IMG/VR virus record: IMGVR_UViG_3300045988_113957
Coordinates: 1 to 44,200 of that record
Source: a virus
Length of the DNA stretch: 44,200 bases
Direction: 5' to 3' (one strand)
Shown here: positions 2,343 through 41,548 of the stretch, piece after piece
Layout: the number at the start of each line of letters is the position of its first letter
How positions within the stretch are numbered: position 1 is the stretch's first letter
Made by a program: the position numbers and the translations under genes
Notes under the pieces: model-generated
What the model saw: only the letters and a program-made list of their open reading frames with translations
What the model was told of the DNA's origin: nothing
Database searches by the model: none

Positions 2343-2524
2343 TTTGTTGTTCCTCCATTCGAGACTTCCACCGCGTCCCACTCAACAATGCCACGCCCGG
2401 AAGCAGCCTTCCAGACCGGTTGACGGTAAAAACCGCCGTGCCGGTAGGCATACCGATAATTTGAGGTATAGTAAACCCCTTGCTTTTCAATCTTCTTTGC
2501 AAGCTTTGCGGATATTTTTGTCAT
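2339..2524 (-). CDS. Small basic protein (61 aa; 76 aa if the leaderless ATG at 2569 is used)
   Basis: TIR GAAGGGAAAATAAAAATG; an in-frame ATG at 2569 lies exactly 6 nt after the -10 box; carries the YAY-x2-GGFYR motif also seen in 1307..1975. Confidence 0.55.
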   Translation of the reverse strand: MTKISAKLAKKIEKQGVYYTSNYRYAYRHGGFYRQPVWKAASGRGIVEWDAVEVSNGGTTK

Positions 2525-2575
2525 TTTTATTTTCCCTTCTGGTTTTCGGGTTTTCCTTCCCTTTTTCATGCCTTT

Positions 2576-2604
2576 ATTATACTCTTTTCGCGTGCATATG
2601 TCAA
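2576..2604 (-). promoter_or_regulatory. Consensus sigma70/sigmaA promoter of the antisense cassette
   Basis: Minus-strand TTGACA (2604-2599), 17 nt, TATAAT (2581-2576). Confidence 0.75.
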
Positions 2605-3054: not shown

Positions 3055-3259
3055 GAAATAATGACAGAGAGTAAGCCCCACGGTGGGGGATATGCGGTAT
3101 GAGTGCAGGAACAACTTTACCCCTCCGACCACATTTCAACAAAAAGACCCTTTCGCCAAAAGAACCACGAAAAGAACCAAAGAACCACCAACAGAACCAA
3201 AAGCCTTTCCGCAAACACTGTTTCATGATATAATAAATACATACCATAGGAGGCACAGT

Positions 3260-4947: not shown

Positions 4948-4976
4948 TTGACAAACATTTTAGAATGTGTTATGAT
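4948..4976 (+). promoter_or_regulatory. sigmaA-type promoter upstream of the portal gene
   Basis: TTGACA, 17 nt, TATGAT, with an extended -10 TGt. Confidence 0.6.
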
Positions 4977-11193: not shown

Positions 11194-11639
11194 GTTTTTC
11201 CGATTCTGACACAGACGGGGGTGAAAAAACCGTCCCATGGAACATACAACTTGTTCGTGAAACTTTTCCGTATCTTCTCTCTATCGGAATGACGGCGGAG
11301 CAGTACTGGGATGGCGATTTTACCCTCGTTTCGTCATATTTGGAAGGACATAAGCTTGCGCTTCAGCGTAAATACGAAAATGATAACTGGAACGCATGGC
11401 TGCATGGTCGGTACACCTATGAGGCACTGGGTGTTGCGCTGTCAGGAATCTTCTCCAAGCACAGCAGCGCAAAATACCCCGATAAACCGTACGAAATGCA
11501 AAACGATGAACGCAAAGAAAAATGCAAGCCCAAGCCCAAAGATAAAACGGAGTTTTACAAAAGCTGGGATGAACTTGCAGAGCAATACGAAGGAAAGGAG
11601 GACATGTCTTGTCTGTATCGATTGATGAACTTATCATAG
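10840..11639 (+). CDS. Tail assembly chaperone, -1 frameshift fusion product (GT-like)
   Basis: The -1 frame is open from 11139 to 11639. The heptamer G GGA AAC at 11160-11166 lies in the zero frame 27 nt before the stop. Confidence 0.65.
11160..11166 (+). promoter_or_regulatory. Programmed -1 ribosomal frameshift slippery heptamer GGGAAAC
   Basis: X XXY YYZ pattern in phase with the 10840 frame (gaG GGA AAC); compare lambda G/GT GGGAAAG. Confidence 0.65.
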
Positions 11640-14600
11640 GCATAGATTCTGACGCTTCGAAAGCGTTACAAGGCTTAAAATCGATGGTGGATACGCTCAA
11701 TCAAGTATCCGCACCGACAGAAACGGCGGTTAAATCGCTGAAAAAGCTAAAGAAAGTGCTTGAAGCGATAAACGGATTAAGCGTTAACGTCAAAGGGCTT
11801 TCAGAGCTTACGAACGCACTCAAAGAGATGTCGGAGTTTGATATTTCTAACCTTAAAAAACTTCCGAATGCGTTAAAAAAACTGTCTGAGGTTGACATTG
11901 CTTCACTTGTTCCGCAAATTCAGGCACTCGCTGACGCTATGAGACCGCTGTCGCAAGTCATGAAAGATATTGCGGCGGGGTATGCGGCACTGCCAAAGAA
12001 CATACGGGCTTACGTTAATGCCGCCAATAGTGCGCAATCAGCAACACAGAAGAAACTGCTCACGTTTGCGCAATTGTACATTAAACTGCGCTTGATTTTC
12101 AATGTGTTCCGCACCGCAGTAAACGCCGTCTCTGAGTGGGTTGACGCTGCGAACACCTACATTGAGGACATGAACCTGTTCAGCGTTGCAATGGGGAAGT
12201 ACGCTGAATCAGCACGGAATTATGCGCAAGAAGTTGCAAACGTAATGGGCATTGACCCGGGCGCATGGATGAGGTATCAGGGCGTATTCCAAACCCTTGC
12301 AACAGGCTTCGGTGTTGCGGGCGACCGTGCCGCTGTAATGAGCCAACAGCTCACACAGTTGGGCTACGACATATCCTCGTTCTATAACATTGACGTTGAA
12401 GCTGCAATGCTGAAACTGCAAAGCGGCTTGAGCGGTGAACTTGAACCGTTGCGCCGTATAGGTTATGACCTGTCGCAAGCAAGACTTGAAGCTGAGGCGC
12501 TGTCACTGGGTATTGAAAAGAATTTCAGCGATATGACGCAAGCCGAAAAGGCATACTTGCGTTATTACGCTATCCTTACACAGGTTACTCAAGCACAGGG
12601 CGATATGTCACGCACACTTGACGCTCCGTCAAATCAGCTCCGAATACTGAAAGAGCAAGCGGCACAGGCGGCTCGTGCGCTCGGCGAAATCTTCATTCCC
12701 GCATTGAACGCAATCCTGCCGTATGCAATTGCCGTTATGCACGTTATTCGCGACCTCGCTTCCGAAATTGCGGCGGCTTTCGGGTTCGAAATGCCCAAGG
12801 TTGATTACTCCGACCTGTCAACATCGGTTAGCATAACCGACAATCTTTCTGACGGAATGGAAGACGTTGCGGACGGAATCGACCATGCAAACACATCGGC
12901 GAAGAAATTCTCCCGCACACTTGCAGGGTTTGACCAATTAAACATTGTCGGCAGTGTGTCAGGCGGTGGAGCAGGCGGCGGCGGTGCAAGCATCGACACT
13001 TCCGGCGGCGGGTTCGACTGGAACAAGTTGCCGCTTCCGACCTATGATTTTATCGGAGATTCCGTATCCGAAAGGGTTGCGGCGATTGAAGAAAAAATCA
13101 AAGGCGCAATTCCGACAATAAAGTTTTTCGGAACATTGCTTGCAGGCGCACTTGCTACTGTCGGCATAATTAAGCTAATCAGTAAATTTAAAGAATTTAT
13201 CAAACTGCTTAAAACTTCCTCAACGGCGGCAAAAACGCTTAAAACGGCTCTCGGCATCGGGTTGATGGTTACGGGCTTAACTATGGCTTTTGAGGGTGCG
13301 AAAAAAATCGGCGCAGGCGAAGCCGAATTAAAGGACTACATCAAAACGGCTATCGGCTCGGCACTCGGAATTGCGGGCGGTTTGCTCATTTTCGGTACTG
13401 GACCCGTTGGTTGGACAATCGGAATCCTTGCGGCACTCACCGTTGTTATAGCAGGTATTGCGATAGGCGCAAAAGAGAAGCTTGATAAACAGGTTGCCGA
13501 ATGGTTCTTTACGGCAGGTGACAACACAATTTCGGTTGATATGCTTGCCGACAGCTTCGATAAAGCCCTTTCGAACATTAACGGCGTGAATGGCGCACTC
13601 GACAGCGGCATTAAGAAGTACAAAGAGTACTCCGACAATGTCGATACAACCCGAACCGAGCTTGAGAACCTTATAGGCGACTTGCAGGTTGTTTCGCCCG
13701 ATGACCCCGAAGTCGCAACCCTTGTTGACAACATTATTGCTAAGTTTAACGAACTGCTTGATTACAGCCGCCTTGAGCTTAAGGAAATAGGCATGAACAT
13801 CAAGCGTTCCCTTGCAGGCTCAATGGGTGAAGTCGTTGCGGCAATGGGCGGTGACGTTACAACCTACATGGCACTTGTTGACGAAATGGTCAACGGCGGT
13901 GTGGAATCGTTCGAAGACATTACGCAACAAATCGAAGAGCTGAGTGTACAGTATAAAGCTGGAACAATCAGCCTTGATGAGTTTTCGCAACAGTCTTCCG
14001 CATTGTACAGTAAGTTACAAACGCTTGTGGGCGATGGCAGCGGCAAGATACTGAACCCGCTTTCCTCTGCCGAAGCTTTGTATGGCAGTATAGATTGGGA
14101 AAACAAAGACCAAATCACAGGCTTCTTTGAACATATCACCGAATCAATCGGCGAATCCAAAGCACTTGCGGAGCAGGAACTTAAGGATTACAATGCAATG
14201 CTTGACGACCTCATGCCTTTCGCAAGCACCCCCGACCAGGTTAATGCCATTAAGGGGCTTAGAACGGCGGCGAACGAAGCTTACCAGAACAGGCTCACGC
14301 AGATAGGCGATGAAACCACAGGCTTAGGCGCGCTCATTGAAGAAGACATAATCCGAAAATATCAGGAAATGGTCACTGCTGCGTGGCAAAACACGGAGGG
14401 CGATTATAGGTTTAAAGCAATTGCGGTCAAGAACGCCGCAAAGAGCTTCAACGACCAGTTTGGCAAACCGTTTCTTGAGGAACTTGAAAAACTCTACGGC
14501 AAAGAGTTTGACGAGGATAACCCCTTGAGGAAAATGCTCGAACACGTTATAAGCCCCGCTGAAATCAATCTCAATACGGACAACCTTTTAACGTGGCTTA

Positions 14601-15334
14601 ACGACGAGTACATCACTCCCGCACTCGGAAGAGCTACATCGCGTGTAACGGAATGGCGAAACGGTGATTTTATTGATGCACTTGCAGCGGCGGACGAAGC
14701 TGGCGCAATTGAGTTCAACGAGTTATTCAATGAACATTACATCAACCCTGCACTCACCAACGCCACAGAGCGTGTACAACGTTGGAAACGCAAGGATTTT
14801 CGTGACGAAATTGCAAGCATTGACGAATTTGTTGCAGGGGACGCAAGAGCGGCAGGAACAACCATAGGTACAGAAGTTGCCAACGGCTTGTCGAGCGGGC
14901 TTGAAACGGCAACAGAAGCGTTTAACAAGTGGTTCAACGCACTGTCGCCGAGAGTGAGATACATCATGGGCGTACTCGTAGGAGCGGGAGGCGGCAGCTT
15001 GTCACTTCCTGGCATGAACATTCCCGCATACGCAAGCGGCGGGTTCGTTCCGAAAGGCGACTTGTTCCTTGCTAATGAAAACGCTCCCGAATTTGTCGGC
15101 AACATCGGCAACAGAACGGCTGTCGCAAACAACAACCAAATCGTTCAGGGCATTGCAAGCGGCGTACAACACGCAAACGCCGAACAGAACATGCTGCTAA
15201 GGGAAGTGCGTGATTATCTCCGTGCTTTACTGAACGTCCAAGGCGACAATACTATTGTGTTTGCGCCTTCCGTTGAGGCGGGACGCGTTGTGTCACGTTC
15301 GCTTAAAATGTATGAACAATCGAAAGGATATTAA
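11609..15334 (+). CDS. Tail tape measure protein
   Basis: 1,241 aa; TTG start 8 nt after AAGGAAAGGAGG; TP901-type core-like region MNLFSVAMGKYAESARNYAQEVANVMGIDPGAW; hydrophobic central block and a Gly run. Confidence 0.85.
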   Translation: MSVSIDELIIGIDSDASKALQGLKSMVDTLNQVSAPTETAVKSLKKLKKVLEAINGLSVNVKGLSELTNALKEMSEFDISNLKKLPNALKKLSEVDIASLVPQIQALADAMRPLSQVMKDIAAGYAALPKNIRAYVNAANSAQSATQKKLLTFAQLYIKLRLIFNVFRTAVNAVSEWVDAANTYIEDMNLFSVAMGKYAESARNYAQEVANVMGIDPGAWMRYQGVFQTLATGFGVAGDRAAVMSQQLTQLGYDISSFYNIDVEAAMLKLQSGLSGELEPLRRIGYDLSQARLEAEALSLGIEKNFSDMTQAEKAYLRYYAILTQVTQAQGDMSRTLDAPSNQLRILKEQAAQAARALGEIFIPALNAILPYAIAVMHVIRDLASEIAAAFGFEMPKVDYSDLSTSVSITDNLSDGMEDVADGIDHANTSAKKFSRTLAGFDQLNIVGSVSGGGAGGGGASIDTSGGGFDWNKLPLPTYDFIGDSVSERVAAIEEKIKGAIPTIKFFGTLLAGALATVGIIKLISKFKEFIKLLKTSSTAAKTLKTALGIGLMVTGLTMAFEGAKKIGAGEAELKDYIKTAIGSALGIAGGLLIFGTGPVGWTIGILAALTVVIAGIAIGAKEKLDKQVAEWFFTAGDNTISVDMLADSFDKALSNINGVNGALDSGIKKYKEYSDNVDTTRTELENLIGDLQVVSPDDPEVATLVDNIIAKFNELLDYSRLELKEIGMNIKRSLAGSMGEVVAAMGGDVTTYMALVDEMVNGGVESFEDITQQIEELSVQYKAGTISLDEFSQQSSALYSKLQTLVGDGSGKILNPLSSAEALYGSIDWENKDQITGFFEHITESIGESKALAEQELKDYNAMLDDLMPFASTPDQVNAIKGLRTAANEAYQNRLTQIGDETTGLGALIEEDIIRKYQEMVTAAWQNTEGDYRFKAIAVKNAAKSFNDQFGKPFLEELEKLYGKEFDEDNPLRKMLEHVISPAEINLNTDNLLTWLNDEYITPALGRATSRVTEWRNGDFIDALAAADEAGAIEFNELFNEHYINPALTNATERVQRWKRKDFRDEIASIDEFVAGDARAAGTTIGTEVANGLSSGLETATEAFNKWFNALSPRVRYIMGVLVGAGGGSLSLPGMNIPAYASGGFVPKGDLFLANENAPEFVGNIGNRTAVANNNQIVQGIASGVQHANAEQNMLLREVRDYLRALLNVQGDNTIVFAPSVEAGRVVSRSLKMYEQSKGY

Positions 15335-19500: not shown

Positions 19501-19529
19501 TTGACGGATGCAACAATATATGCTATAAT
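19501..19529 (+). promoter_or_regulatory. Consensus promoter abutting the endolysin ATG
   Basis: TTGACG, 17 nt, TGcTATAAT; only 6 nt (caaaac) lie between the -10 box and the ATG at 19536. Confidence 0.65.
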
Positions 19530-22514: not shown

Positions 22515-22946
22515 ATGTCATGTTCGAATAATTTCAGGAAATCAGCAGTAAGCACGGTAAACACAGCGGCGCAGACCGTAACGGCAAACGCAACCCCGCT
22601 TTCCCTGCTCGGCAGTGTATGTTACAACAGCGGCTGTTCGCTGTCCGCAAATGCAAGCGGCATCAACATCAAAAGCAGCGGGCTTTATACCGCCTCAGGA
22701 AGCGTCACAATCACTCCGACAGCGGCAGGGACTGTTACTGTATACCTTGCGCTAAACGGCGTTACACTGCCTTGTAGCGTGCGTCAGCAAACGGTTGTGG
22801 CGGCATCACCTATCACCATAAACACCTCGGCAATTGCGTTCGGTGCAGGGGCTTGCGCTTGCAACTCGTCAACCCTGACGCTTGTTGTCTCGGGTGCAGC
22901 CGGAACGGTTGACTATGTTACGGCAGGGGCGGTACGCCTCGCATAA
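22515..22946 (+). CDS. Beta-rich A/T/S/G/V protein resembling BclA C-terminal (C1q-like) or DUF3992 (Ena-like) domains
   Basis: 143 aa; RBS GGAGG; Cys at positions 3, 36, 41, 87, 114 and 116; alternating beta-strand pattern (GLYTASGSVTITPTAAGTVTVYLALNGVTL). Confidence 0.45.
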   Translation: MSCSNNFRKSAVSTVNTAAQTVTANATPLSLLGSVCYNSGCSLSANASGINIKSSGLYTASGSVTITPTAAGTVTVYLALNGVTLPCSVRQQTVVAASPITINTSAIAFGAGACACNSSTLTLVVSGAAGTVDYVTAGAVRLA

Positions 22947-22960
22947 GAAAGGCGGAAGCA

Positions 22961-23530
22961 ATGGCGGCAAGTGAGATACTGTCTAAAATAGCAACACATC
23001 AGGTAAAAGGCATAATGTTTCACGCTCAAATGGCGGACTATTTCGACTTTTTGAACCTCCGTGGATTCAAACGGTTGCATGAGTATCAGTACATGAGCGA
23101 ATCAGCCGAATATCGGAAGACTTGCAGGTTTTGCATAAACCATTGCTACAAGCTATGCAAAATCGGGCAAACGGATGACCCACACGTCATACCTGACAGA
23201 TGGTACAGCGCACGGCGGAGTGAGGTGGATACTAACACGAAGCGCAGGGCTGTCGTTGAAGCATTTGAGCAGTATGTATTGTGGGAGCAAAACACACTGC
23301 AACTTTACGAACAGTGCTATTCCGAACTTGTTGCGGAAGGCAAAATTGCAATAGCGGATTATGTCAAGAATCTCATTGCAGACGTTGCGGATGAACTTAA
23401 GCACGCTTCCCGCTTGCGCCTGGAACTTGCAAACACTGACGGCGATATTATACACGTTTATGACCTGCAAGAGGCTATGCACGAGGATTACAAGCAAAAA
23501 ACGAGGGTAGTCGGCGTGATACTCTCTTGA
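22961..23530 (+). CDS. Ferritin-like four-helix-bundle protein (non-canonical metal ligands)
   Basis: 189 aa; HQVKGIMFHAQMADYFDFLNLRGFKRLHEYQYMSESAEY and EQYVLWEQNTLQLYEQ resemble ferritin helices A/B and C. Confidence 0.45.
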   Translation: MAASEILSKIATHQVKGIMFHAQMADYFDFLNLRGFKRLHEYQYMSESAEYRKTCRFCINHCYKLCKIGQTDDPHVIPDRWYSARRSEVDTNTKRRAVVEAFEQYVLWEQNTLQLYEQCYSELVAEGKIAIADYVKNLIADVADELKHASRLRLELANTDGDIIHVYDLQEAMHEDYKQKTRVVGVILS

Positions 23531-23555
23531 CGGCGCATTTTGAACGTGCTATAAT
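23527..23555 (+). promoter_or_regulatory. Consensus promoter overlapping the stop codon of 22961..23530
   Basis: TTGACG, 17 nt, TGcTATAAT. Confidence 0.7.
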
Positions 23556-23561
23556 TATCAC

Positions 23562-23775
23562 TGTCAGACAGGATGAACCTCTTACCTCGCAGTCAGCGAC
23601 GGCGGGCGGGCATGATAACACGTTCGCCGTCGCAACTCCTTCTTGTCTGTCTTGAGTAAAAATGGTGCGCATTATGCGCTGTACTATATATCGCAACGGG
23701 GTTTTCAGCCTCCTTCATTTTTATTTCCTCCTTCGCAAAGGGAGCTGCTTGCTGGTCACGGGCGGCTCTCTTTTG
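23562..23775 (+). ncRNA. Candidate ~215-nt structured non-coding RNA or leader
   Basis: Bracketed by the promoter at 23527 and the terminator at 23738. Perfect 9-bp stem GCGACGGCG/CGCCGTCGC (23596-23604 / 23625-23633) nested in CAGACAGG/CTTGTCTG. Two CCUCC motifs at 23709-13 and 23727-31. No + strand ORF with an RBS. Confidence 0.4.
23593..23718 (-). CDS. Candidate 41-codon ORF antisense to the putative RNA
   Basis: MKEAENPVAIYSTAHNAHHFYSRQTRRSCDGERVIMPARRR. Its TIR GAAGGAGGAAATAAAAATG nearly matches those of 36184 and 2524. Only a weak promoter candidate exists (TTGCAC-17-ATTAAT, 23848..23820). Confidence 0.3.
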   Translation of the reverse strand: MKEAENPVAIYSTAHNAHHFYSRQTRRSCDGERVIMPARRR

Positions 23776-23779
23776 CGTT
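23738..23779 (+). terminator. Putative intrinsic terminator
   Basis: The AAGGGAGCTGCTTG / CACGGGCGGCTCTCTT stem (about 12 bp, several G-U pairs) is followed by TTTTGCGTT. Confidence 0.5.
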
Positions 23780-23808
23780 ATATATTTATTTTTTGTTCAA
23801 AAAAAGGG

Positions 23809-23838
23809 TTGACACGCACATTAATGCGGGTGTATAAT
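23809..23838 (+). promoter_or_regulatory. Early (recombination/replication operon) promoter
   Basis: TTGACA, 18 nt, TATAAT; the spacer contains the palindrome CATTAATG. Confidence 0.65.
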
Positions 23839-23883
23839 ACATGTGCAAACAAAAAAGCGGCAACCCCGCAGAAAGAGGAGATT

Positions 23884-24120
23884 ATGAACACAAAGCAAAT
23901 AAACACCCGCATTGCGTACTATGATGCGCTCCGCAAGCTTATGGCGAATGCCAAAGAGAACATGCGCCAAGCTGAAATCAGCCTTGACGATGCTAACACT
24001 GACGGCATGGCAACGGCAGAAGAAAAAGACCTTGCACAGGCAAGGTATGATGCGGCAGTCAACCTTTACGCAAGGCTGATTAACCTGCCGTTCGAATACG
24101 AAGAGGAGGACGATTTTTAA
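23884..24120 (+). CDS. Small helical protein with an acidic C-terminal tip (..LPFEYEEEDDF)
   Basis: RBS AGAGGAGattATG; 78 aa; first gene of the early operon. Confidence 0.6.
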   Translation: MNTKQINTRIAYYDALRKLMANAKENMRQAEISLDDANTDGMATAEEKDLAQARYDAAVNLYARLINLPFEYEEEDDF

Positions 24121-24121
24121 A

Positions 24122-24580
24122 ATGACTTTATATGAAATCAACCAGAACATTCTGTCTCTTATTGATGAAGAGACAGGCGAAATCTCCGACACTGTAGCGT
24201 TCGAAGCACTGCTCGGCGCAAAAGACGAAAAGCTTGAAAACATAATCAAGCTGTACAAGAATGCAACAGCCGACAGTGCGGCACTCAAAGCCGAAGCGGA
24301 CGCATTCACAAAGAGAGCAAAAGCGGCGGCGGCACTTGCTGACCGCATGAAGGCAATGTTGGAAGCCGAGCTTGACGGCAACACATTTGAATGCACGACC
24401 GGAAAGGTTAGCTTCCGCAAGAGCAAGGCACTCATTGTGGACGACGAAGCCCGCATTCCCGAGCAGTATCAGAAAATTGCCTTTAGCGTTGACAAGGCTG
24501 CACTCAAGAAGGCAATTGAAGGCGGCGAGAACATTGCGGGTGCGCACATTGAAGTGCGTCAGAATGTGCAGGTGAAATGA
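24122..24580 (+). CDS. Siphovirus Gp157-family protein
   Basis: 152 aa; N-terminal MTLYEINQNILSLIDEETGEI and a coiled-coil centre typical of Sipho_Gp157; sits upstream of an annealase as usual. Confidence 0.6.
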   Translation: MTLYEINQNILSLIDEETGEISDTVAFEALLGAKDEKLENIIKLYKNATADSAALKAEADAFTKRAKAAAALADRMKAMLEAELDGNTFECTTGKVSFRKSKALIVDDEARIPEQYQKIAFSVDKAALKKAIEGGENIAGAHIEVRQNVQVK

Positions 24581-24581
24581 C

Positions 24582-25313
24582 ATGAAAGAACTAAAATTTC
24601 GGTGTCTGCGGGCGGAAGATGTAAACGCAAGAGTGCAGAAACTTGTAGTCGGTAGCGGGGCAATTTTGCTGCTGTACAAAGATGCAAGGGTTGACATGGC
24701 TATGCTTGATAAAGAAGTCGGACCTTTTAACTGGAAAAGGGAACACAGCCGTGACAATGCGAATTGCACCATCAGTATTTGGGACGAAGAGAAATCCCAA
24801 TGGGTGAGCAAGGAAGATGTCGGCACTCCGTCAAACACGGAGGCAGAAAAAGGGCTTGCAAGCGACGCTTTTAAGCGTGCCGGCTTCAACTGGGGCATCG
24901 GCAGGGAGCTGTACACTGCGCCTTTTATCTGGGTTAATGCGGACAAATTTCAGACTCGCAAGACCCCGAGGGGAGGCGATGAGGTTGACGGCAAGTTCCT
25001 CGTCACCCGCATGGACGTTGACGAGGACAGCCGCAAAATCACACGGCTGGAAATTGCTTTTAAGCACAAAAACAACCCTGCAACCCCTTGTTTTAAATGG
25101 GTGGATACGGACGCAAAGCCCGCAACCCCGAAAGAACCTGCAAAGCAACCGAGCCGTGCAGACCAACTGGCAGAGCTTGAACGGCTGTTGACGGAGACCA
25201 ACACCGACAGACAAAAGTTCTTCGGATATTACAAAGCAGAGAATGCTGACGAGATGGATGCTGACCAGCTGGCGGAGGGCTTGCAGATACTGCGCCGCCG
25301 TTCGGCAAAATGA
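24582..25313 (+). CDS. Single-strand annealing protein, Rad52/Sak (DUF1071) type
   Basis: LLLYKDARVDMAMLDKEVGPFNWKREH...AFKRAGFNWGIGRELY signature. Confidence 0.7.
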   Translation: MKELKFRCLRAEDVNARVQKLVVGSGAILLLYKDARVDMAMLDKEVGPFNWKREHSRDNANCTISIWDEEKSQWVSKEDVGTPSNTEAEKGLASDAFKRAGFNWGIGRELYTAPFIWVNADKFQTRKTPRGGDEVDGKFLVTRMDVDEDSRKITRLEIAFKHKNNPATPCFKWVDTDAKPATPKEPAKQPSRADQLAELERLLTETNTDRQKFFGYYKAENADEMDADQLAEGLQILRRRSAK

Positions 25314-25334
25314 AAGAGCAAGGAGGAATAAAAG

Positions 25335-26129
25335 ATGGAAAGAGCGAGGGAGAAAGCCAACCCCTGTCTTGACTGTATGTATGCAGTCCCTAAAAGGGGT
25401 GAACAGAACTGTTGTTGGGCGGAACGGTTTGAGCCTGTCGAAGGCTGGATTGCCCAAAAGGTTCATTACCCTTGGGCTCACAGCCCGTCCTGCAAAGAGA
25501 CGTACGCAATTGAGTACTGTCCAAAGTTTAAAATTGACCCAAGGGCATTAACGTACAACACACGTTTTGAGGAAACGCTCGGGCGGATGGAAGCGGCGGT
25601 GCGCCGTGTTGTATCAAATCCGTTCGGCATGACGGAAACGGAAGCTGTAGACTGTCTTTACTCCCGTGCCGAGGTCAGCAGGACGTTCCAACCCGCCGCA
25701 AAAGTACTTACGGTGATGAAACTGTTGCCGCCGGGCAAGGGAATATCCGTAACGAAAATAACGGAGCGAACACGGCTCACGATGAATGCTGTTGCAAACG
25801 CAATTACCATACTGACCGGATGGGGCTGGATATTCGAAGTCGATTGCGACATTATCGACTTCACGGTAACAATAACCCTCAATGGGTTTGATAATCCGCA
25901 GAAGGAGGTAGACATTGTGGAACAACAAAACAAGATGGTACTTGCCTGGCTCGAAGAGTACGGCACTATAACAGCGCAAGAAGCTGTTGAGGTGCTTGAC
26001 ATATACCGCTTGTCCGCAAGGATTTATGACCTGAGGGCAAAGGGACACAAAATACGCACAACGTCTGTATCAAGGACACGAGCAGACGGACGCAGAGTAT
26101 CTTACGCAAAATACATTCTGGAGGATTGA
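25335..26129 (+). CDS. DNA-binding protein: Cys-rich N-terminus plus a C-terminal winged-helix
   Basis: CLDCMY..NCCW..C..C at the N-terminus; C-terminal ITAQEAVEVLDIYRLSARIYDLRAKGHKI resembles the HTH_39-type wHTH. Confidence 0.5.
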   Translation: MERAREKANPCLDCMYAVPKRGEQNCCWAERFEPVEGWIAQKVHYPWAHSPSCKETYAIEYCPKFKIDPRALTYNTRFEETLGRMEAAVRRVVSNPFGMTETEAVDCLYSRAEVSRTFQPAAKVLTVMKLLPPGKGISVTKITERTRLTMNAVANAITILTGWGWIFEVDCDIIDFTVTITLNGFDNPQKEVDIVEQQNKMVLAWLEEYGTITAQEAVEVLDIYRLSARIYDLRAKGHKIRTTSVSRTRADGRRVSYAKYILED

Positions 26130-26639: not shown

Positions 26640-26668
26640 TTGACTAATCGGGCAGAGTATGCTATAAT
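26640..26668 (+). promoter_or_regulatory. Replication-operon promoter
   Basis: TTGACT, 17 nt, TGcTATAAT. Confidence 0.7.
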
Positions 26669-27399: not shown

Positions 27400-28455
27400 A
27401 TGGCAAACACTAACATCAACACCAACGCATTCACCGCACGAATCAGCACCATTGACGCCGCAGGAGACCTTATAGCGGGCATTCTGCTTGACCGTATCAT
27501 TTACCTGCTCAGCCCCGAATCGGACGCAAAAACGGAACGTATAGAGCGTGACGGCTATACATGGATTGCTCGCCGCCGTGCAGACTGGAAAGATGAAATC
27601 CGCATCAGCGCAAAGCAGTACGACCGCGCCGCAAGGATACTGGAACGCAAGGGGTTCATCGTCACGAAAACCTTCCGCCTTGACGGCGACCCCGCTACCC
27701 ATATACGCCTTAACTATGACGTATTGAACTCTAATTTTTGCGATTGGAGTGACCGTGCAAACGTTGATTTGGGCAGTAACTCAAACGGCAACAACGGCGG
27801 CAAAACTGCTACCGAAAAGGTGAACAACGAACTCGCCAATGCGGAGACAGCAACTACCCCTTCGGGGGTAAACGCTGTTACCAAAAGGACAGTTGATGTT
27901 CCCGAAAGGGAATCTTACGCTCTCCCTGAAAGGGCAATTTCCCCTAATGGCAATAATAATAATAATAATCTTAATAGCAATATTAATTTAAATAAAAATA
28001 TTAATAATATTATTAATAAAAAATTTAATAATAATTATTTAAATAATAATAATAAATTAAATAAATTTAATAATATTAATAATTTAAATTTAAATTTAAA
28101 TAATAATAATAATACCGATAAGGCAAGTTTGGAACAACAGATTTGCCAATACACGGACTACAGACCCCTCAAAGAGGCACTGCAAAATTTTATTGCAATG
28201 CGTGAGAGAATCGACCGTCCGATAAACGTATACGGCATCAAGAAAGTGTTGCAGAAGCTTGATGACCTCAGCCTGTGCAACGAAGAGCGTGCTGTCGGCA
28301 TCGTACAGCAAAGCATTAACAGACAATGGCTGTCCTTCTACCCCATCAGCCAAAAGGCAGCACAGACCGTGCAGAGCGCATGGACGGCGGTGAAACCCGC
28401 TAAAGCACAGCCGCAAGAAAAAGCATGGAATCCGGCATACGGCATTCTTGTTTAA
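27400..28455 (+). CDS. Replisome organiser / DnaD-like replication initiator with an internal poly-Asn tract
   Basis: N-terminal wHTH-like LLDRIIYLL...GYTWIARRRADWKDEIRISAKQYDRAARILERKGFI; C-terminal DnaD/DnaB_2-like LKEALQNFIAMRERIDRPINVYGIKKVLQKLDDLS...SINRQWLSFYP. Confidence 0.6.
   Translation: MANTNINTNAFTARISTIDAAGDLIAGILLDRIIYLLSPESDAKTERIERDGYTWIARRRADWKDEIRISAKQYDRAARILERKGFIVTKTFRLDGDPATHIRLNYDVLNSNFCDWSDRANVDLGSNSNGNNGGKTATEKVNNELANAETATTPSGVNAVTKRTVDVPERESYALPERAISPNGNNNNNNLNSNINLNKNINNIINKKFNNNYLNNNNKLNKFNNINNLNLNLNNNNNTDKASLEQQICQYTDYRPLKEALQNFIAMRERIDRPINVYGIKKVLQKLDDLSLCNEERAVGIVQQSINRQWLSFYPISQKAAQTVQSAWTAVKPAKAQPQEKAWNPAYGILV
27952..28114. repeat. 163-bp AT-only low-complexity tract (3 G/C in total) inside the replisome-organiser gene
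   Basis: Encodes in frame NNNNNNLNSNINLNKNINNIINKKFNNNYLNNNNKLNKFNNINNLNLNLNNNNN; built from AAT/TTAAAT units. Confidence 0.95.
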
Positions 28456-31374: not shown

Positions 31375-31403
31375 TTGACAAACATAGATGACAGGGATAT
31401 AAT
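31375..31403 (+). promoter_or_regulatory. Consensus promoter of the small-gene operon
   Basis: AAAACGC-TTGACA, 17 nt, TATAAT. Confidence 0.75.
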
Positions 31404-31447
31404 ACTCTACGAGAAGCGCAGGAAGCGCAAACAAGGAGGATTTAAAA

Positions 31448-31654
31448 ATGATATATTTTAAAATCGAACGTCCTGTATCTATTGGGACGTATCCGAAACC
31501 GCAAGGCAACCGTGTTGACGCAATCGTCAACTTTGATGAACCAATATTCGTTGCCGAAATCGGCAGGTCTGCGTGGGGGTACATCGAGTATGCGCACCCG
31601 CTGACAGCGGAACAGGCGGCGGCATATGAACTGACAAAAGGCAAGGAGGAATAG
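31448..31654 (+). CDS. Small protein (68 aa), possibly DarA_N-like
   Basis: AAGGAGGA RBS; the pattern RP-x-SIGTYPK ... WGYIEY-x3-LT-x-EQ-x3-YEL is recalled from polyvalent-protein / DarA N-terminal modules (unverified). Confidence 0.4.
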   Translation: MIYFKIERPVSIGTYPKPQGNRVDAIVNFDEPIFVAEIGRSAWGYIEYAHPLTAEQAAAYELTKGKEE

Positions 31655-33482: not shown

Positions 33483-33738
33483 CCAGTATATTGACGTGCT
33501 GACGGAAGGCGAGTGGTGGGATTACATTCCTGACGATTCTTCCGATATGGAACTGCGGCTGCTGGAAAGGGCTGTAAAGGAAATGGCGGGCATTGCGTCC
33601 CGACTGACGTATTGCGGCGAATGTGAGCATTTTAACCGCATAACGAACACACTCGGCACATGCGAACGATGCACCGAAGGCACTAAAACCGAGGATGATT
33701 TTTGTTCGAACGGCGAAGCAAAGGGGGAAGAAAAATGA
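33469..33738 (+). CDS. 4-Cys module protein (CGECEHF..GTCERC..EDDFC)
   Basis: RBS AAAGGAG; 89 aa. Confidence 0.5.
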   Translation: MKITDQYIDVLTEGEWWDYIPDDSSDMELRLLERAVKEMAGIASRLTYCGECEHFNRITNTLGTCERCTEGTKTEDDFCSNGEAKGEEK

Positions 33739-34700
33739 GCGTAAATTGGCATGAGGACAACAGGAAGCCGCAAGAGGCGGGGAGTTACTATACGATAATC
33801 GAGGATGTTGCAACACACGATGTGGAAGTCGGCATAACAACGTACGATGAATCGAGACAGCAATGGCTGATAGATGAGCAATGCGGAAGGCAAGTCAAAG
33901 CGTGGGCAAAAATTGAAAAGCCGTGTATGCCCGAAAATCCGTACGTTCCCGAGGAATTTCGCAAACGGCTGATGACGTACATGGGGCGGACAGTTGGAGA
34001 AAAAAGCTTGAATACGTTGAAAAGCGAAGAACAAAAAGAGAAAGAGCTGAAAGAGAAAATCGATGCGCACAGCAAATGGCTTCGCAACGCGGGTGGTGAG
34101 AGACTGAACCTTGACGGCGCAGACTTGCAGGGGATGGACTTAAGCGGCGTAATTTTTTGCAAAGCAAGTCTTAACGGCACAAATTTTAGAGGGGCTACTC
34201 TTCGTGAGACAAATTTTAGAGAAGCTGAGCTAAAAGGAGCTAATTTTAGCGGTGCGCATATCAAGAACGCCACCTTCGCCGATGCCAACGTGCGCGATAC
34301 TGTGTTTGAAAATGCGGAAATTGCCGGTGCGGATTTTACAGGTGCGAAACTCAACTGGGCGGATTTTAAAAACGCAAATTGCGAAAACACAAACTTTGCA
34401 GGAACGAATTTATCCCATGCAAGATTCGTCAACGCAAACTGCCGTCATGCTTATTTCGAGGACGCAAAGGGATGCGCAAACTTTAAAGATGCCGACATTG
34501 CAGGCGTAATTCTCACATCAGCAATGGAGACACTTTACGGCGGCTGGATAACTGAGACGCAAGTGACAACAGCATTAGAGCCAATCCTTGTAAGCGGGCT
34601 GCACAGCCCCCATCTAACCAAAAAAATAAAAAGAAAGCTTCGTGTACTGGAAAAATTCATTTCCCGCCACGAAAAACAAAGGAGAAAGGCAGAGGAATGA
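33735..34700 (+). CDS. Pentapeptide-repeat protein 1 (DUF551-like N-domain, coiled coil, about 26 pentapeptide repeats)
   Basis: ATGA overlap. Repeats ADLQG MDLSG ... ANFSG AHIKN ATFAD ANVRD ... ADFKN ANCEN TNFAG span about 34104-34511. Confidence 0.8.
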   Translation: MSVNWHEDNRKPQEAGSYYTIIEDVATHDVEVGITTYDESRQQWLIDEQCGRQVKAWAKIEKPCMPENPYVPEEFRKRLMTYMGRTVGEKSLNTLKSEEQKEKELKEKIDAHSKWLRNAGGERLNLDGADLQGMDLSGVIFCKASLNGTNFRGATLRETNFREAELKGANFSGAHIKNATFADANVRDTVFENAEIAGADFTGAKLNWADFKNANCENTNFAGTNLSHARFVNANCRHAYFEDAKGCANFKDADIAGVILTSAMETLYGGWITETQVTTALEPILVSGLHSPHLTKKIKRKLRVLEKFISRHEKQRRKAEE

Positions 34701-36103: not shown

Positions 36104-36132
36104 TTGACGGCAATGGAGGGTGGTGGTATAAT
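36104..36132 (+). promoter_or_regulatory. Consensus promoter
   Basis: AAAACGC-TTGACG, 17 nt, TGgTATAAT. Confidence 0.75.
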
Positions 36133-36183
36133 AAGTACCATCAAGTGAGGCGGACACATAAAAACGCAGAAGGAGAAATAAAA

Positions 36184-36879
36184 ATGGAAAACAAGGTCTA
36201 CACGCAGGAAGAGGTAAACGAAATATGCACTCAGCATGAAGCGTGGTTGAAGGATTGGCACACAGGCAAACGTGCCGATTTCAGCGGAGCAAACCTCCGA
36301 GGGTTACATTTGGAAGGACGCTCCCTAAGGAAGGCGAATTTCCAACGCACGGACTTAACGGGAGCATTTTTAAAGTCGGCTGATTTCGACCACGCCAACT
36401 TTGAAGGGGCGAATCTCACTTTCGTGAGAGCGTCATATGCAAAATTCAACGACTGCATGGCAGACCATGCATGTTTTGACGAAGCGCACCTGACAGGCAC
36501 TTATTTCGAAGGGGCTTCGCTCCAGCGTGCCTCTTTCAGGAAGGCACAGGTCAACTTTGCCTCCTTTAGAGAGGCAAAGTTGTGGCGAGCAGACTTTGTG
36601 GACGCCATAACCGGCGGCACAATCTTTGCCCGAGCCAACCTGGAGTTTGCAGCCTTCAACTCGGGCTTTGCCGGAAATAACTTCGATGATAGACAGATTG
36701 CCGAGTTTGCATATAATCTGTGCACTGCCGTCCTTGGCGGTCACACAAACAGCCCTGAGGTGAAGGAAACAGTTCGCAAGATACTTAGCCTTGCGAACAG
36801 GGCGGAGTCGGTGAAGGTGTTTGGTCGTGTGCAAGAGTATAGAAACGGACAGTATATAACAGCAAAGGAGGCTGAATGA
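36184..36879 (+). CDS. Pentapeptide-repeat protein 2
   Basis: TIR GAAGGAGAAATAAAAATG. About 26 repeats (ADFSG ANLRG LHLEG ... ANFEG ANLTF ... ASFRE AKLWR ADFVD). The ORF-track 5' extension spans the promoter and was rejected. Confidence 0.8.
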   Translation: MENKVYTQEEVNEICTQHEAWLKDWHTGKRADFSGANLRGLHLEGRSLRKANFQRTDLTGAFLKSADFDHANFEGANLTFVRASYAKFNDCMADHACFDEAHLTGTYFEGASLQRASFRKAQVNFASFREAKLWRADFVDAITGGTIFARANLEFAAFNSGFAGNNFDDRQIAEFAYNLCTAVLGGHTNSPEVKETVRKILSLANRAESVKVFGRVQEYRNGQYITAKEAE

Positions 36880-37322
36880 TGAAAAAAATTTACACAGAAA
36901 AAATTCATCAATCGACCCGCTTCGGGCTGGTTGATGAAGACGGACGCAAAACCCCTTGCGGGACGCTGTGGTCGGACGCACAGCGGGAGACGTTTAAACG
37001 CCTGCTTAATGGCGGGAACAACCTCGCCTTTATGGTGTGGGGCGGTGACGGCGCAAAGAAATCCGCCTTATGGGCGAAGTGGACGGACGCTCGGGGGCAA
37101 AAGAAACTCTATAAGCTCGGCACGTTCGGGCAGAATGCACCGATGGAAGAGTTTGTAGAAGTCGCAATCGCAACGGCGCACGACAACAAGTGTTGCGCAA
37201 CATGCGGACACTTTGAACGTGTTAACAGGCACGGACAGATAAACTGCGGCATGGGCGTATGCACGCTCATAAACAGGGAGAGATACTGCTTGTTTAAATG
37301 CGGGGATTGGAGTATGCAATGA
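36876..37322 (+). CDS. Hypothetical protein with a C-terminal Cys module (CCATCGHF...C..C....C..C)
   Basis: GGAGGctgaATGATG; 148 aa. Confidence 0.5.
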   Translation: MMKKIYTEKIHQSTRFGLVDEDGRKTPCGTLWSDAQRETFKRLLNGGNNLAFMVWGGDGAKKSALWAKWTDARGQKKLYKLGTFGQNAPMEEFVEVAIATAHDNKCCATCGHFERVNRHGQINCGMGVCTLINRERYCLFKCGDWSMQ

Positions 37323-38179
37323 ACGAACTGAAAGAAAAAGAAACGCAGGCAATAAAGGTACTGCGTACTTTTGAACCCGAAGAAGGGTACGTCCTCGCCT
37401 ACAGCGGCGGCAAGGATAGCGACTGCATAAAAATTCTTGCGCAGCTTGCAGGGGTAAAATTTGAGGCGGTGCATAATTTAACAACGGCGGACGCACCCGA
37501 GACTATGCAGTATATCAAATCCCAACCTGATGTGAGCATTAGTTGGGCGAGGGACAAAAACGGAAAACACGTCACTATGTGGAATCTAATTGAGACGCAC
37601 GGACTTCCGACACGCGTCCTCCGCTTTTGCTGCAACAAGCTGAAAGAGCAAGCAAATCAAGGACGCTTGCTTATAACGGGCGTACGCAAAGCGGAATCAG
37701 TCAACCGAAAACGGGACGGCGGGCTTGTAAAAATAATGGGCAAGCCCAAAACAACGGAAAAACTGGCGCAAGAGATAGGCGTTGAGTACAGCAAACCCAG
37801 AGAAGATGGGCTTATCCTTAACGACGACAACGCCGAATCCCGCCGAATGGTGGAGCAGTGCTATCGCACTCGCAAAACCTTAGTTAACCCAATTTTGGAC
37901 TGGACGGGTGAGGACGTGTGGGAATTCCTGCACCATTACGGTTGTGAGGGAAACCCACTATACAGATGCGGACACAGCCGTGTGGGCTGCATCGGCTGCC
38001 CGATGAAGGGCGGCAAAAAAATGAAGGCAGACCTTGAGCAGTATCCGAAATATGCTCAAATGTACTTCCGTGCAACGGACAGAATGCTTAAACGCCGCAT
38101 GGAGCAAGGCAAGGAACTTCCGCTTGCGTGGGGCGACGGCAGACCCGAAACCGTTATGAAATGGTGGCTTGAGAATTGA
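37319..38179 (+). CDS. PAPS-reductase / PP-loop ATPase family protein (DndC/IbrA-like)
   Basis: ATGA overlap; PP-loop AYSGGKDSD; C-terminal Cys cluster CGHSRVGCIGCP. Confidence 0.7.
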   Translation: MNELKEKETQAIKVLRTFEPEEGYVLAYSGGKDSDCIKILAQLAGVKFEAVHNLTTADAPETMQYIKSQPDVSISWARDKNGKHVTMWNLIETHGLPTRVLRFCCNKLKEQANQGRLLITGVRKAESVNRKRDGGLVKIMGKPKTTEKLAQEIGVEYSKPREDGLILNDDNAESRRMVEQCYRTRKTLVNPILDWTGEDVWEFLHHYGCEGNPLYRCGHSRVGCIGCPMKGGKKMKADLEQYPKYAQMYFRATDRMLKRRMEQGKELPLAWGDGRPETVMKWWLEN

Positions 38180-38188
38180 GGTGGAAGC

Positions 38189-38794
38189 ATGAAAATAATC
38201 AGCGCAAGCTGTCACATCGAAACGCCGATTGACGGCGCAGAAATACTAAAGCGCATCGAAAAAGCAGGACGCACCTGCTACAAATCGGAAGACCGCATCA
38301 CGGAGGAATCAGCAAAGAACTTTGTCCGAAAGCTGATAGAGCGTGGGCATGAAAGCGTGCTTGAACACGAAAGCATCACCGTGCGGTTTGTCTGCGACCG
38401 TGGCATATCGCATGAGATTGTACGCCACAGACTTGCCAGCTACTCACAGGAGAGCCAACGATATGTGCGCTATAACGGCGACATTGAGTTTATCAACCCT
38501 CGTATGCCCAATGCAAAAGCGTACGAAGCGTGGCAAGAGTTATGCGAACGTGCCGAGGAAACGTATAAGGAACTGCTGTCGTACGGTGTACAGCCGCAAC
38601 AAGCCCGCTCCGTGCTTCCGAACAGCACAAAAACGGAAATTATTATGACAGCAAACCTGCGGGAATGGCGGCATTTTTTGAAACTGCGGACGGCGAAAGC
38701 GGCGCACCCGCAAATGCGTGAGCTGACCGTGCCGCTGCTGCACGAATTGCAACGGCAGATTCCTGTCGTTTTTGACGATATAGGGGAGGGCTGA
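38189..38794 (+). CDS. thyX: Flavin-dependent thymidylate synthase
   Basis: ThyX signature RHRLASYSQESQRY; 201 aa. Confidence 0.85.
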   Translation: MKIISASCHIETPIDGAEILKRIEKAGRTCYKSEDRITEESAKNFVRKLIERGHESVLEHESITVRFVCDRGISHEIVRHRLASYSQESQRYVRYNGDIEFINPRMPNAKAYEAWQELCERAEETYKELLSYGVQPQQARSVLPNSTKTEIIMTANLREWRHFLKLRTAKAAHPQMRELTVPLLHELQRQIPVVFDDIGEG

Positions 38795-38795
38795 T

Positions 38796-39458
38796 ATGGG
38801 CAAGGTGCTGATAGCCTGCGAGGAAAGCCAAGCCGTATGTAAGGCATTTCGTGAGCGAGGGCATGAAGCGTACAGCTGCGACATACAAAAGCCTTCCGGC
38901 GGACACCCCGAATGGCACATACACGGAGACGCAATTGCGGCATTGCAGGGCGGCAAAATTGTGACCATGGACGGAGTGACGCGCGATATAGGCAAGTGGG
39001 ATTTACTGATTGCGCACCCGCCGTGTACGTATCTGACAAATGCAGGAGCGCGGCATCTATGGAAAGGGCATCAACTGCAAGCGGACAGGGTAATGCTCGG
39101 AATAAAGGCGCGGGATTTCTTCATGCGGTTCTGGTGGGCAAAAATCGAAAAAATATGCGTCGAGAATCCTGTGCCGAGCAAGATTTTTGTAATGCCGGAA
39201 CGCTCGCAAATCATCCAACCGTGCCAATTTGGACATCCATATACCAAGAGAACCTGTTTATGGCTACAAAATTTACCACCGCTGAAACCGACAAACATCG
39301 TCAAGCCGACAGCAACATGGTGTCCGAGCGGTAGCTACAGCCATAACCATGGGGAGCAACACAAAGGCACGTTCACCACGGACAGGGCGAAAAACCGCTC
39401 AAAGACTTTCCCAGGCATTGCCGCCGCAATGGCAGAGCAGTGGGGCAGTTTAATTTGA
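38796..39458 (+). CDS. Short C5-cytosine-methyltransferase-like protein (no recognisable motif I or TRD)
   Basis: AHPPCTYLTNAG (motif IV-like), VENPVPS (motif VI-like), QFGHPYTKRTCLWL, and C-terminal FPGIAAAMAEQW (motif X-like). Confidence 0.5.
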   Translation: MGKVLIACEESQAVCKAFRERGHEAYSCDIQKPSGGHPEWHIHGDAIAALQGGKIVTMDGVTRDIGKWDLLIAHPPCTYLTNAGARHLWKGHQLQADRVMLGIKARDFFMRFWWAKIEKICVENPVPSKIFVMPERSQIIQPCQFGHPYTKRTCLWLQNLPPLKPTNIVKPTATWCPSGSYSHNHGEQHKGTFTTDRAKNRSKTFPGIAAAMAEQWGSLI

Positions 39459-39500: not shown

Positions 39501-39529
39501 TTGACACGTTAGTCTCCGGAGGTTATAAT
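39501..39529 (+). promoter_or_regulatory. Consensus promoter
   Basis: TTGACA, 17 nt, TATAAT. Confidence 0.75.
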
Positions 39530-40738: not shown

Positions 40739-41548
40739 ATGCACTATCAAGGCGGCAAATACAGATTCATCAAGCACATAACGCCGATAATACAGGCGGA
40801 GATAGACAAACACCAAGCACGGCATTTTGTATCGCCGTTTTGTGGGGCTTGCAACATCGAGAGCGCAATCGTGCATACCGATAAAACCTGCAACGACAAG
40901 AATGAGTATATCATTCGAATGTGGCGGGAATTACAGCAAGGCAGGGAGTTCCCGTCAACAGTCACGGAAGAGCAGTACAAGTATGTGCGTGACCACAAGG
41001 ACGAAGACCCCGCATTGACAGGATTCATCGGAGCGGGCTGTTCGTACGCAGGAAAATGGTTTCACGGCTACGCAAGAGACAGAACTGGAAAGAATTACGC
41101 CGACCAAGCGAAACGTGGCAATGAAACAACGATGGATGGCAGGATATACCGCAATTTTGCCCGTGAAGCGAAAGACAGCAACGAACGCATGATGCAGGCA
41201 GGGCTGAAACACGCAGTATTTACGGCAGGGGACTACAGGGACGTGGAGATACCGCCCGACACGGTAATGTATTGCGACCCTCCGTATGCCGACACGCACG
41301 GATATGACGGCGCAAAGGGATTCAACTCCGCCGAATTTTGGGCATACATGGAAGAGCTTCTTGATAACACACCTAATCTGTCAATCTTTGTATCCGAGCA
41401 GACCGCACCAAGCGGATGGCGGGAAGTATGGCAGGAAGAGTGTTTGCAGGAAGTCCACAAGAACCCAAAGAACACAGGCAGGCGCAGAATGGAGCGGCTG
41501 TTTTACAAAACAAACAGAGAGGAACAGGATGGACACATCGAGACTTGA
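40739..41548 (+). CDS. dam: Dam-type N6-adenine DNA methyltransferase
   Basis: N-terminal YQGGKY, SPFCGACN (SAM-binding region), catalytic DPPY. Confidence 0.8.
   Translation: MHYQGGKYRFIKHITPIIQAEIDKHQARHFVSPFCGACNIESAIVHTDKTCNDKNEYIIRMWRELQQGREFPSTVTEEQYKYVRDHKDEDPALTGFIGAGCSYAGKWFHGYARDRTGKNYADQAKRGNETTMDGRIYRNFAREAKDSNERMMQAGLKHAVFTAGDYRDVEIPPDTVMYCDPPYADTHGYDGAKGFNSAEFWAYMEELLDNTPNLSIFVSEQTAPSGWREVWQEECLQEVHKNPKNTGRRRMERLFYKTNREEQDGHIET

Follow-up and report, generated by a model that had tools for sequence, protein, structure and literature searches.

We describe a putative non-coding RNA gene of about 216 nucleotides (nt), located on the + strand (23562..23779) of IMG/VR record IMGVR_UViG_3300045988_113957, of which the stretch from position 1 to 44,200 (44,200 nt; hereafter, the window) was analysed and found to be a siphovirus-type phage genome from the human gut. 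The locus lies between the last of the late genes (22961-23530) and the early recombination/replication operon, and probably is a real + strand non-coding RNA gene, given that it has no open reading frame (ORF) led by a Shine-Dalgarno (SD) sequence, folds preferentially on the + strand and is conserved among relatives. As its likeliest mechanism we propose (with a probability of roughly 0.5, considering the sequence and its modelled fold) that the RNA may act in trans, as a phage small RNA (sRNA) that would mask the SD sequences of its target mRNAs. Its 5' end is predicted approximately 7 nt past the -10 box of the upstream promoter, and its 3' end within the U-tract of the terminator.

The promoter in question (P1, 23527..23555, +; TTGACG-17-TGcTATAAT) agrees with the consensus at 11 of 12 positions, carries an upstream TG (extended -10) and overlaps the last late gene at its stop codon. 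Sites with a score of at least 11/12 are approximately 20-fold enriched in the window (13, vs 0.6 ± 0.9 in dinucleotide shuffles), from which it follows that P1 is more than a chance occurrence; nearly all of them precede an SD and an ATG by 30-80 nt, P1 being the sole strong one without such a start. The unit is closed by an intrinsic terminator (23736..23779, +), consisting of a 16-17 bp hairpin (23736-23775, core GGGAGCUGC/GCGGCUCUC) and the U-tract UUUUGCGUU, which escapes an automated terminator scan by having a loop longer than 8 nt. No SD-led + strand ORF was found between the two elements: a 28-codon frame has no SD and is disrupted in one of the relatives (L003). Downstream of it, a second promoter (P2, 23809..23838, +; TTGACA-18-TATAAT), which matches the consensus at 12 of 12 positions and is conserved in all variants of the region, precedes the first ATG (23884) of the early operon. 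An earlier note, made from the sequence alone, had predicted P1, the terminator closing a unit of about 215 nt, the lack of a + strand ORF preceded by a ribosome binding site, and strong nested stems in between, and all of these were recovered as predicted. A longer + strand frame of 152 codons (23662-24120), the same as that of the first early gene, starts inside the RNA gene and continues across the terminator and P2; judging from the aligned sequences it is coincidental, since a 1-nt deletion breaks it in three variants (L009, L001 and L002).

Relatives of the region were gathered via flanking proteins, DNA patterns and exact-protein look-ups, and originated exclusively from human-gut metagenomes. 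They amounted to seven distinct versions (the window, L003, L009 (=L008=L052), L002, L001, L034 and L035 (=L036)), which showed 78-95% identity to the window and all of which retained the P1 hexamers, the hairpins, the terminator and P2. The conservation of the RNA region equals or exceeds that of the flanking coding genes, with identities of 93-95% (vs 83-91% for the genes) in the comparison with L035, and of 83-98% (vs 80-88%) in that with L034. Outside this group, a blastn search of 22900-24600 against GenBank phages returned no match, and pattern scans, of IMG/VR with two 17-mers and of metagenomes with one 19-mer, recovered only the same phage group and chance matches.

The predicted structure points to the + strand as the functional one. 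The 229-nt stretch folds with -81.3 kcal/mol on the + strand (z = -4.1) and -65.6 kcal/mol on the minus strand (z = -2.6), and over the seven variants the + strand is 7-18 kcal/mol more stable (z from -2.6 to -5.3, vs -1.6 to -4.3). The modelled fold has three parts: a 5' domain with nested stems, a middle domain and the terminator hairpin. In the 5' domain (23565..23649, +) the outer stem CAGACAGGA/UCUUGUCUG (23565-73/23641-49) encloses an inner hairpin (23596-23608/23621-23633) with the core GCGACGGCG/CGCCGTCGC (23596-23604/23625-23633), as the earlier note had drawn it. Over the whole structure 98.4% of the cells (one base pair in one variant) are paired. The inner hairpin is paired in 91/91 cells on the + strand and in 75/91 on the minus strand, and the terminator in 116/117 and 90/117, respectively; the minus strand pairs worse because every G-U becomes an A·C there. 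Eight of the 17 terminator pairs vary on one side only, with the pairing kept via G-U, and one pair of the inner hairpin occurs as G-C, A-U and G-U. As the substitutions in the hairpins fit pairing on the + strand, the structure under selection would be that of a + strand RNA. The same region is the sole 300-nt segment hereabouts with a negative AT skew (i.e. with a U-rich + strand).

These observations bear on the possibility that the stretch has no dedicated function, in which case the terminator would simply end the late operon, P1 would be fortuitous or vestigial, and the sequence between them the remnant of a decayed gene or a recombination scar where two modules meet. Such an explanation could accommodate the indels and duplications seen in the stretch, its weak covariation, and the two relatives (L004 and L005, see below) that diverge from the others inside it. 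Set against it are a conservation at least equal to that of the neighbouring genes, P1 hexamers that are kept while the spacer drifts, pairing that is strictly maintained on one strand, and independent analogous cassettes in distant phages (see below), so that we hold it to be quite improbable.

Within the RNA, the motifs most relevant to the proposed activity are pyrimidine-rich. The proposed seed (23726..23733, +) is the anti-Shine-Dalgarno-like UCCUCCUU, which is invariant in 7/7 variants and lies in a single-stranded linker directly 5' of the terminator, with a predicted probability of being unpaired of 0.74-0.99 in all seven. An exposed pyrimidine-rich motif beside the terminator is the usual layout of base-pairing seeds in Firmicute sRNAs (RsaE/RoxS, LhrC). 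Of the two CCUCC motifs in this part of the window (23709-13 and 23727-31) only the latter, contained in the seed, is conserved; the former (23709..23713, +) reads GCUCC in L009 and GCCUUC in L001, L002 and L035. Farther upstream, the CU-rich motif 1 CUCCUUCUUGUCUGUCU (CUCCUUCUUGYCUGYCU; 23636..23652, +) is conserved too, and it is predicted to be exposed (probability of being unpaired 0.8-0.99) in L009 and in the three variants with insertions (L001, L002 and L035), in which it is duplicated and the second copy closes the outer stem, leaving the first one free. Also invariant is the 5' segment CAGACAGGAUGAACCUC.

The most conserved block of all (23667..23695, +) comprises the small hairpin GCGCA-UUA-UGCGC, paired in 70/70 cells on the + strand, followed by UGUACUAUAUAUCG, and includes a 19-mer invariant in 7/7 variants. 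This block (the hairpin plus UACUAUAUAUCG), rather than the seed, is the part under the strongest conservation, a fact better explained by an RNA that titrates a host or phage factor, through the block itself or through CU-rich repeats, than by a pairing model. The three or four copies of the CU-rich motif, whose number varies by duplication, could be read in the same sense. We deem such a sponge rather unlikely, as it is purely speculative and no known protein-binding motif or family was recognised in the RNA.

The duplications reside in insertions of 45-72 nt after window position ~23655 (4690-4765 in both L001 and L002, ~4958-5005 in L035), which carry the second CU motif behind a new hairpin (ACCGACAUAAAUGUCGGU); L001 and L002 also have a mini terminator-like hairpin (AAGGCUGCUGCCUUUUG). 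From their sequences, these insertions look like modular growth of the RNA by duplication. Two further relatives depart from the other variants inside the RNA gene, L004 (4643-4867) past the equivalent of 23603 and L005 (4767-4815) past the second CU-motif copy, and their contigs stop within the next 50-225 nt. No counterpart of the divergent tails was found in the window, in the other loci, in IMG/VR or in GenBank phages, and the divergence could reflect a recombination breakpoint, an assembly chimera or a junction of unknown kind. A phage attachment site (attP) or prophage junction, which these tails bring to mind, is unlikely because no integrase (nor a CI-type repressor) was recognised among the window genes, and neither the 189-amino-acid (aa) product of the last late gene nor the invariant 19-mer was present in the 185,579 species genomes searched.

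The earlier note had regarded the region as a candidate cis-antisense switch, in which the P1 transcript would face a 41-codon ORF on the opposite strand (23593..23718, -). This frame does exist, preceded by a GGAGG SD at a spacing of 8 nt, and a reading in which it is a real small-protein gene, repressed by the full-length P1 RNA pairing over its SD and start, would find encouragement in its near-ideal translation initiation region (TIR; GAAGGAGGAAATAAAAATG), conserved in 7/7 variants, and in frames that stay open for 41-65 codons across the variants. The products initiated at the conserved minus-strand ATG share a frame in four cases (41, 41, 41 and 47 aa, the last in L034), and they are shifted in L002 (59 aa) and L001 (65 aa); in total the frame is changed over at least half of the ORF in 3/7 variants (L001, L002 and L035), because of a 1-nt deletion near the start and the 45-72-nt insertion. 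The peptide is basic and hydrophilic, not hydrophobic and unlike a toxin, the genes downstream of it are all on the + strand with no minus-strand transcription unit nearby, and the hairpin substitutions fit the + strand only. No facing promoter scores above 8-9/12, which is the level expected by chance, and neither the 8/12 nor the 9/12 site is conserved. The divergent promoter put forward in the note (TTGCAC-17-ATTAAT, 8/12) is one of these, and its -10 box CATTAATG reads CATTGATG, CATTAAGG or CGTTATAG in the relatives. In the analogous cassettes of distant phages, moreover, the minus-strand SD and AUG open only 2, 9 and 21 codons. We thus view a cis-antisense pair as very improbable, the ORF being best explained, as far as the sequences allow, as the mirror image of conserved + strand motifs.

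Other parts of that proposal fared unevenly. Both CCUCC motifs had been taken for the SD of the 41-codon ORF; they exist, and only the one at 23727-31 occupies the SD position, the other falling within codons 2-4. The TIR of the ORF had been called almost identical to those at 36169-36186 and 2539-2522, a resemblance that holds only if a 1-nt gap is allowed (not within 3 mismatches): the alignments are GAAGGAG-AAATAAAAATG at 36168-86 and GAAGG-GAAAATAAAAATG at 2539..2522, and what stands is the shared 11-mer AAATAAAAATG, with 3 occurrences against 0.14 expected. A compact switch replacing a repressor module finds no operator-like conserved palindrome, as the GCGCATTATGCGC palindrome is unique in the window, and both the CATTAATG box and an inverted repeat overlapping P2 vary among relatives. 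This repeat (23823-23836/23900-23913; 14 nt, 93% complementary, 11 nt of it perfect) links the P2 spacer and -10 box with codons 6-10 of the first early gene; in relatives it is disrupted by synonymous changes and, not being conserved, is probably due to chance.

Homologues of the 189-aa late protein (47-49% identity) occur in phages with other early genes, and in three of these the slot that follows holds a cassette of the same build (L037 1367-1534; L053 1104-1261; L038 ~5686-5812): a strong promoter, a 100-130-nt RNA without an ORF, a strong terminator, a second strong promoter, and an SD with ATG. The cassettes come after the homologue and a tiny ORF of 32-42 aa, and before a different early operon (134-aa protein ... 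resolvase). Their RNAs are unrelated in sequence to that of the window, and they too fold preferentially on the + strand (z = -5.4 and -6.1, vs -0.9 and -2.0 on the minus strand). In all three, an unpaired stretch 5' of the terminator contains a CCUCC, and in L037 and L053 the conserved CCUCC is, once more, the terminator-proximal one. The minus-strand starts open ORFs of 9, 21 and 2 codons in L037, L053 and L038, respectively. In five further loci (L039, L041, L043, L044 and L054) the 189-aa-family gene is followed by a plain terminator or leads straight into the next gene, and no more cassettes turned up when the Gp157-related loci L011-L016 and further 189-aa-family loci were scanned for promoter-to-terminator units. 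The arrangement is therefore recurrent, not universal.

The order of the elements would also suit a leader or attenuator, in which P1 transcripts would form a regulated leader for the early operon, polymerase would pass the terminator only under certain conditions, and P1 and P2 together would tune early expression; read-through might come about by pairing of a CU-rich motif with the purine-rich 5' arm of the terminator (AAAGGGAG) or by the action of a phage antiterminator. P1, the terminator and the early operon are indeed in tandem and co-oriented, the CU motifs could in principle (as read from the sequence) pair with the 5' arm, and RNAalifold gives alternative long-range pairings of the invariant 5' segment. 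Nevertheless, the perfect (12/12) P2 intervenes between the terminator and the operon, which hence need not use P1; in the three distant cassettes the terminator U-tract abuts the next -35 box; the window's terminator has a long hairpin (16-17 bp) that stays paired throughout the variants and is the dominant element of the predicted ensemble; and no riboswitch or leader family of Rfam was matched. An attenuator, in either form, is accordingly unlikely.

Returning to a trans-acting sRNA, we reason that the locus would constitute an independent gene, whose + strand RNA of ~216 nt would be driven by P1; as this promoter is of the sigma-A type used by the host, the RNA would be expected from the start of infection. 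Late-operon transcripts reading through the last late gene would have this sequence at their 3' end, and the terminator would stop both P1 and late transcripts, insulating P2. The RNA would be laid out as a 5' stem-loop domain, the small conserved hairpin and a single-stranded UCCUCCUU 5' of the terminator, with one or two more CU-rich motifs. In trans, the exposed anti-SD-like seed and the adjacent CAUUUUUAUUU would pair with the region from SD to AUG of mRNAs, thereby blocking ribosome binding: CCUCCUU is complementary to SDs of the GGAGG type and, together with CAUUUUUAUUU, to the entire SD-spacer-AUG. The likeliest targets would be the promoter-proximal genes of the phage itself, having TIRs of the type GGAGGAA(A)UAAAA(A)UG (starts 31448, 36184, 25335 and possibly 2524).

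When the seed block was hybridised in silico with 156 SD-led starts of the window, the best scores (-24.1 to -22.7 kcal/mol, vs -11.3 ± 4.5) were those of 31448, 36184, 25335 and 33735. First in rank is the TIR of a 68-aa gene (31432..31450, +; start 31448; -24.1 kcal/mol) behind the perfect promoter 31375-31403, and second of the 156 that of a pentapeptide-repeat gene (36166..36186, +; start 36184; -24.1 kcal/mol) behind the promoter 36104-36132, both being the first genes behind strong promoters. Both AAATAAAAATG and GAAGGAG are found in the latter TIR as well as in the sequence complementary to the seed block. The third candidate, a TIR within the early operon (25316..25345, +; start 25335) that belongs to the HTH_39 gene, was the best non-self site in a duplex scan of the whole window (-35.8 kcal/mol, vs a mean of -10.4 and a standard deviation of 4.4); its GGAGGAAUAAAA is kept in close relatives and reads GGAGGAACAAAA in L034. 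The start at 33735 belongs, like 36184, to a pentapeptide-repeat protein, so that the TIRs of both such genes (33735-34700 and 36184-36879) are among the four best partners of the seed. In one distant cassette (L038) the analogous seed is predicted to pair best with the TIR of the first gene that follows.

Several results weigh against this interpretation. The target ranking is modelled and suggestive only (z about -2.8), as any RNA containing CCUCC scores well against SD regions, and the partner predicted to be best in L037 is something other than a TIR. Co-variation between seed and target was not seen at the TIRs of 36184, 25335 and 26697, which offer little variation to compare; the 36184 TIR is unchanged in L046, whose RNA lacks 1 nt of the seed block, and only in the window and L003 is the first CCUCC block complementary to the 26697 TIR, the other relatives having lost this match. 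On the structural side, an A·C mismatch interrupts the outer stem in 4/7 variants, and formal covariation is not significant, with a single pair changing on both sides and 50 of 500 column shuffles reaching the observed score; of the conservation and covariation that the earlier note would have looked for in relatives, the region thus displays the former. Owing to the weak covariation and the outer-stem mismatches, only the inner hairpin, the small GCGCA hairpin and the terminator are treated as firm elements of the modelled structure, the outer stem being less certain. The Rfam/Infernal scan that the note had called for matched no family: cmscan with 4227 families gave no match at gathering score for the whole window, and only noise (E >= 0.19) for 23300-24000 at E <= 10.

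Since the 16S rRNA 3' tail has this very sequence, CCUCCUU, one may also picture the RNAs predicted at the late/early junction of several unrelated Firmicute phages as a positional class of general anti-Shine-Dalgarno mimics, an idea that we regard as decidedly unlikely. If true, such RNAs would compete with ribosomes for the strongest GGAGG-type sites and reprogram translation globally, leading to host shut-off or to temporal gating of the promoter-proximal phage genes, instead of acting on one specific target.

As to its class, the locus would be a phage-encoded regulatory sRNA, a kind already known and not a new principle. The nearest likeness in design is with RsaE/RoxS and the LhrC family of Listeria, trans-acting Firmicute sRNAs with CU- or C-rich seeds, each of which is encoded by a separate gene with a sigma-A promoter and an intrinsic terminator of its own, and in which several unpaired pyrimidine-rich motifs pair with GGAG-type SDs and block translation initiation. 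The window's RNA differs from them in being phage-encoded and longer (~216 nt), and in having a seed in which CCUCC and an A/U-rich extension are complementary to the whole SD-spacer-AUG; sequence or structure homology is absent, with no Rfam match at gathering score or at E <= 0.1. Among phage RNAs, P22 sar, P1/P7 c4 and lambda OOP are likewise short, transcribed from a constitutive promoter and block ribosome binding on phage mRNAs, c4 acting on sites elsewhere in the genome (PMC12197685). They are, however, 68-77 nt long, belong to temperate phages of Gram-negative hosts, and target antirepressor or cII genes in the immunity circuit (PMC12197685), whereas the window has no recognised integrase or CI-type repressor, and its RNA no overlapping sense gene. 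The TIR of an Ant-like gene in the window (34918) ranks only 10 of 156 as a partner of the seed block. The RNAs PreS of lambda, VpdS of VP882 and SprY of an S. aureus prophage are also phage-encoded and independently transcribed, and base-pair with host or phage mRNAs or sRNAs (PMC12197685); in contrast to the RNA described here, to which they are unrelated in sequence, they are mostly Hfq-dependent and from Gram-negative hosts (PMC12197685), and none of them is reported from the junction of a late and an early operon or to possess an anti-SD-type seed. A literature search likewise retrieved no description of an sRNA with an anti-SD seed at such a junction in a phage.

The regulatory RNAs of phages infecting Gram-positive gut bacteria are almost uncharted. 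Known phage sRNAs stem mostly from phages of E. coli, Salmonella and Vibrio (PMC12197685). If real, the RNA would represent a new sRNA family without an Rfam model and would provide a search rule (at the late/early junction, a strong promoter, 100-220 nt without an ORF and with an exposed CCUCC, a terminator and the next promoter) by which like genes could be found in metagenomic phages. It would also suggest, as a candidate idea, that a phage whose roughly ten promoters look constitutive, and in which no repressor was recognised, may order its expression post-transcriptionally. The near-perfect sigma-70-type promoters of the genome, approximately ten in number, include those at 4948-4976, 19501-19529, 23809-23838, 26640-26668, 31375-31403, 36104-36132 and 39501-39529 on the + strand and 2604..2576 on the minus strand, and several strong ones are preceded by an A-rich AAAAAGGG/AAAAACGC tract.

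Regarding the genomic setting, the late genes occupy the + strand from ~2.9 kb to 23530 and comprise the large terminase (TerL; 3083-4936), a tape-measure-sized ORF (11609-15334) and lysis genes. The early operon encodes, from ATG 23884 onwards, a 78-aa protein, Gp157, Erf-like, HTH_39 and SSB proteins, and then O-like and DnaC-like ones. No tRNA or tmRNA genes were found in the window. Among GenBank phages the nearest TerL is that of Clostridium innocuum phage Maintenon, with an identity of only 42%. The 189-aa last late protein had no match in Pfam, PHROG or NCBIfam, and a profile of its family searched against PDB gave only weak ferritin-like matches (E 0.1-0.4); the family occurs in siphovirus-type contigs and in one contig (L041) with phi29-type connector and tail genes.

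A few other identities were considered for the RNA locus and set aside. A type III toxin-antitoxin (ToxI-like) RNA would have tandem 36-nt repeats and a toxin gene, neither of which is present; the duplicated motif does not resemble the repeats of clustered regularly interspaced short palindromic repeat (CRISPR) arrays, which argues against a CRISPR-repeat mimic; and a phi29-like pRNA does not suit a terminase-using, siphovirus-type genome. Nor does the locus resemble a replication origin, as it has no iterons, and an AT-rich repeat array typical of origins sits at 27952-28114. The latter consists of degenerate tandem repeats (AATAATAAT-type, periods 9-45) inside the O-like initiator gene (27400-28455), and is probably the origin of replication. 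Elsewhere in the genome, the genes at 37298-39458 and 40739-41548 (PAPS-reductase-like, thymidylate-synthase-like and two DNA methyltransferases) may form a DNA-modification or anti-restriction module.

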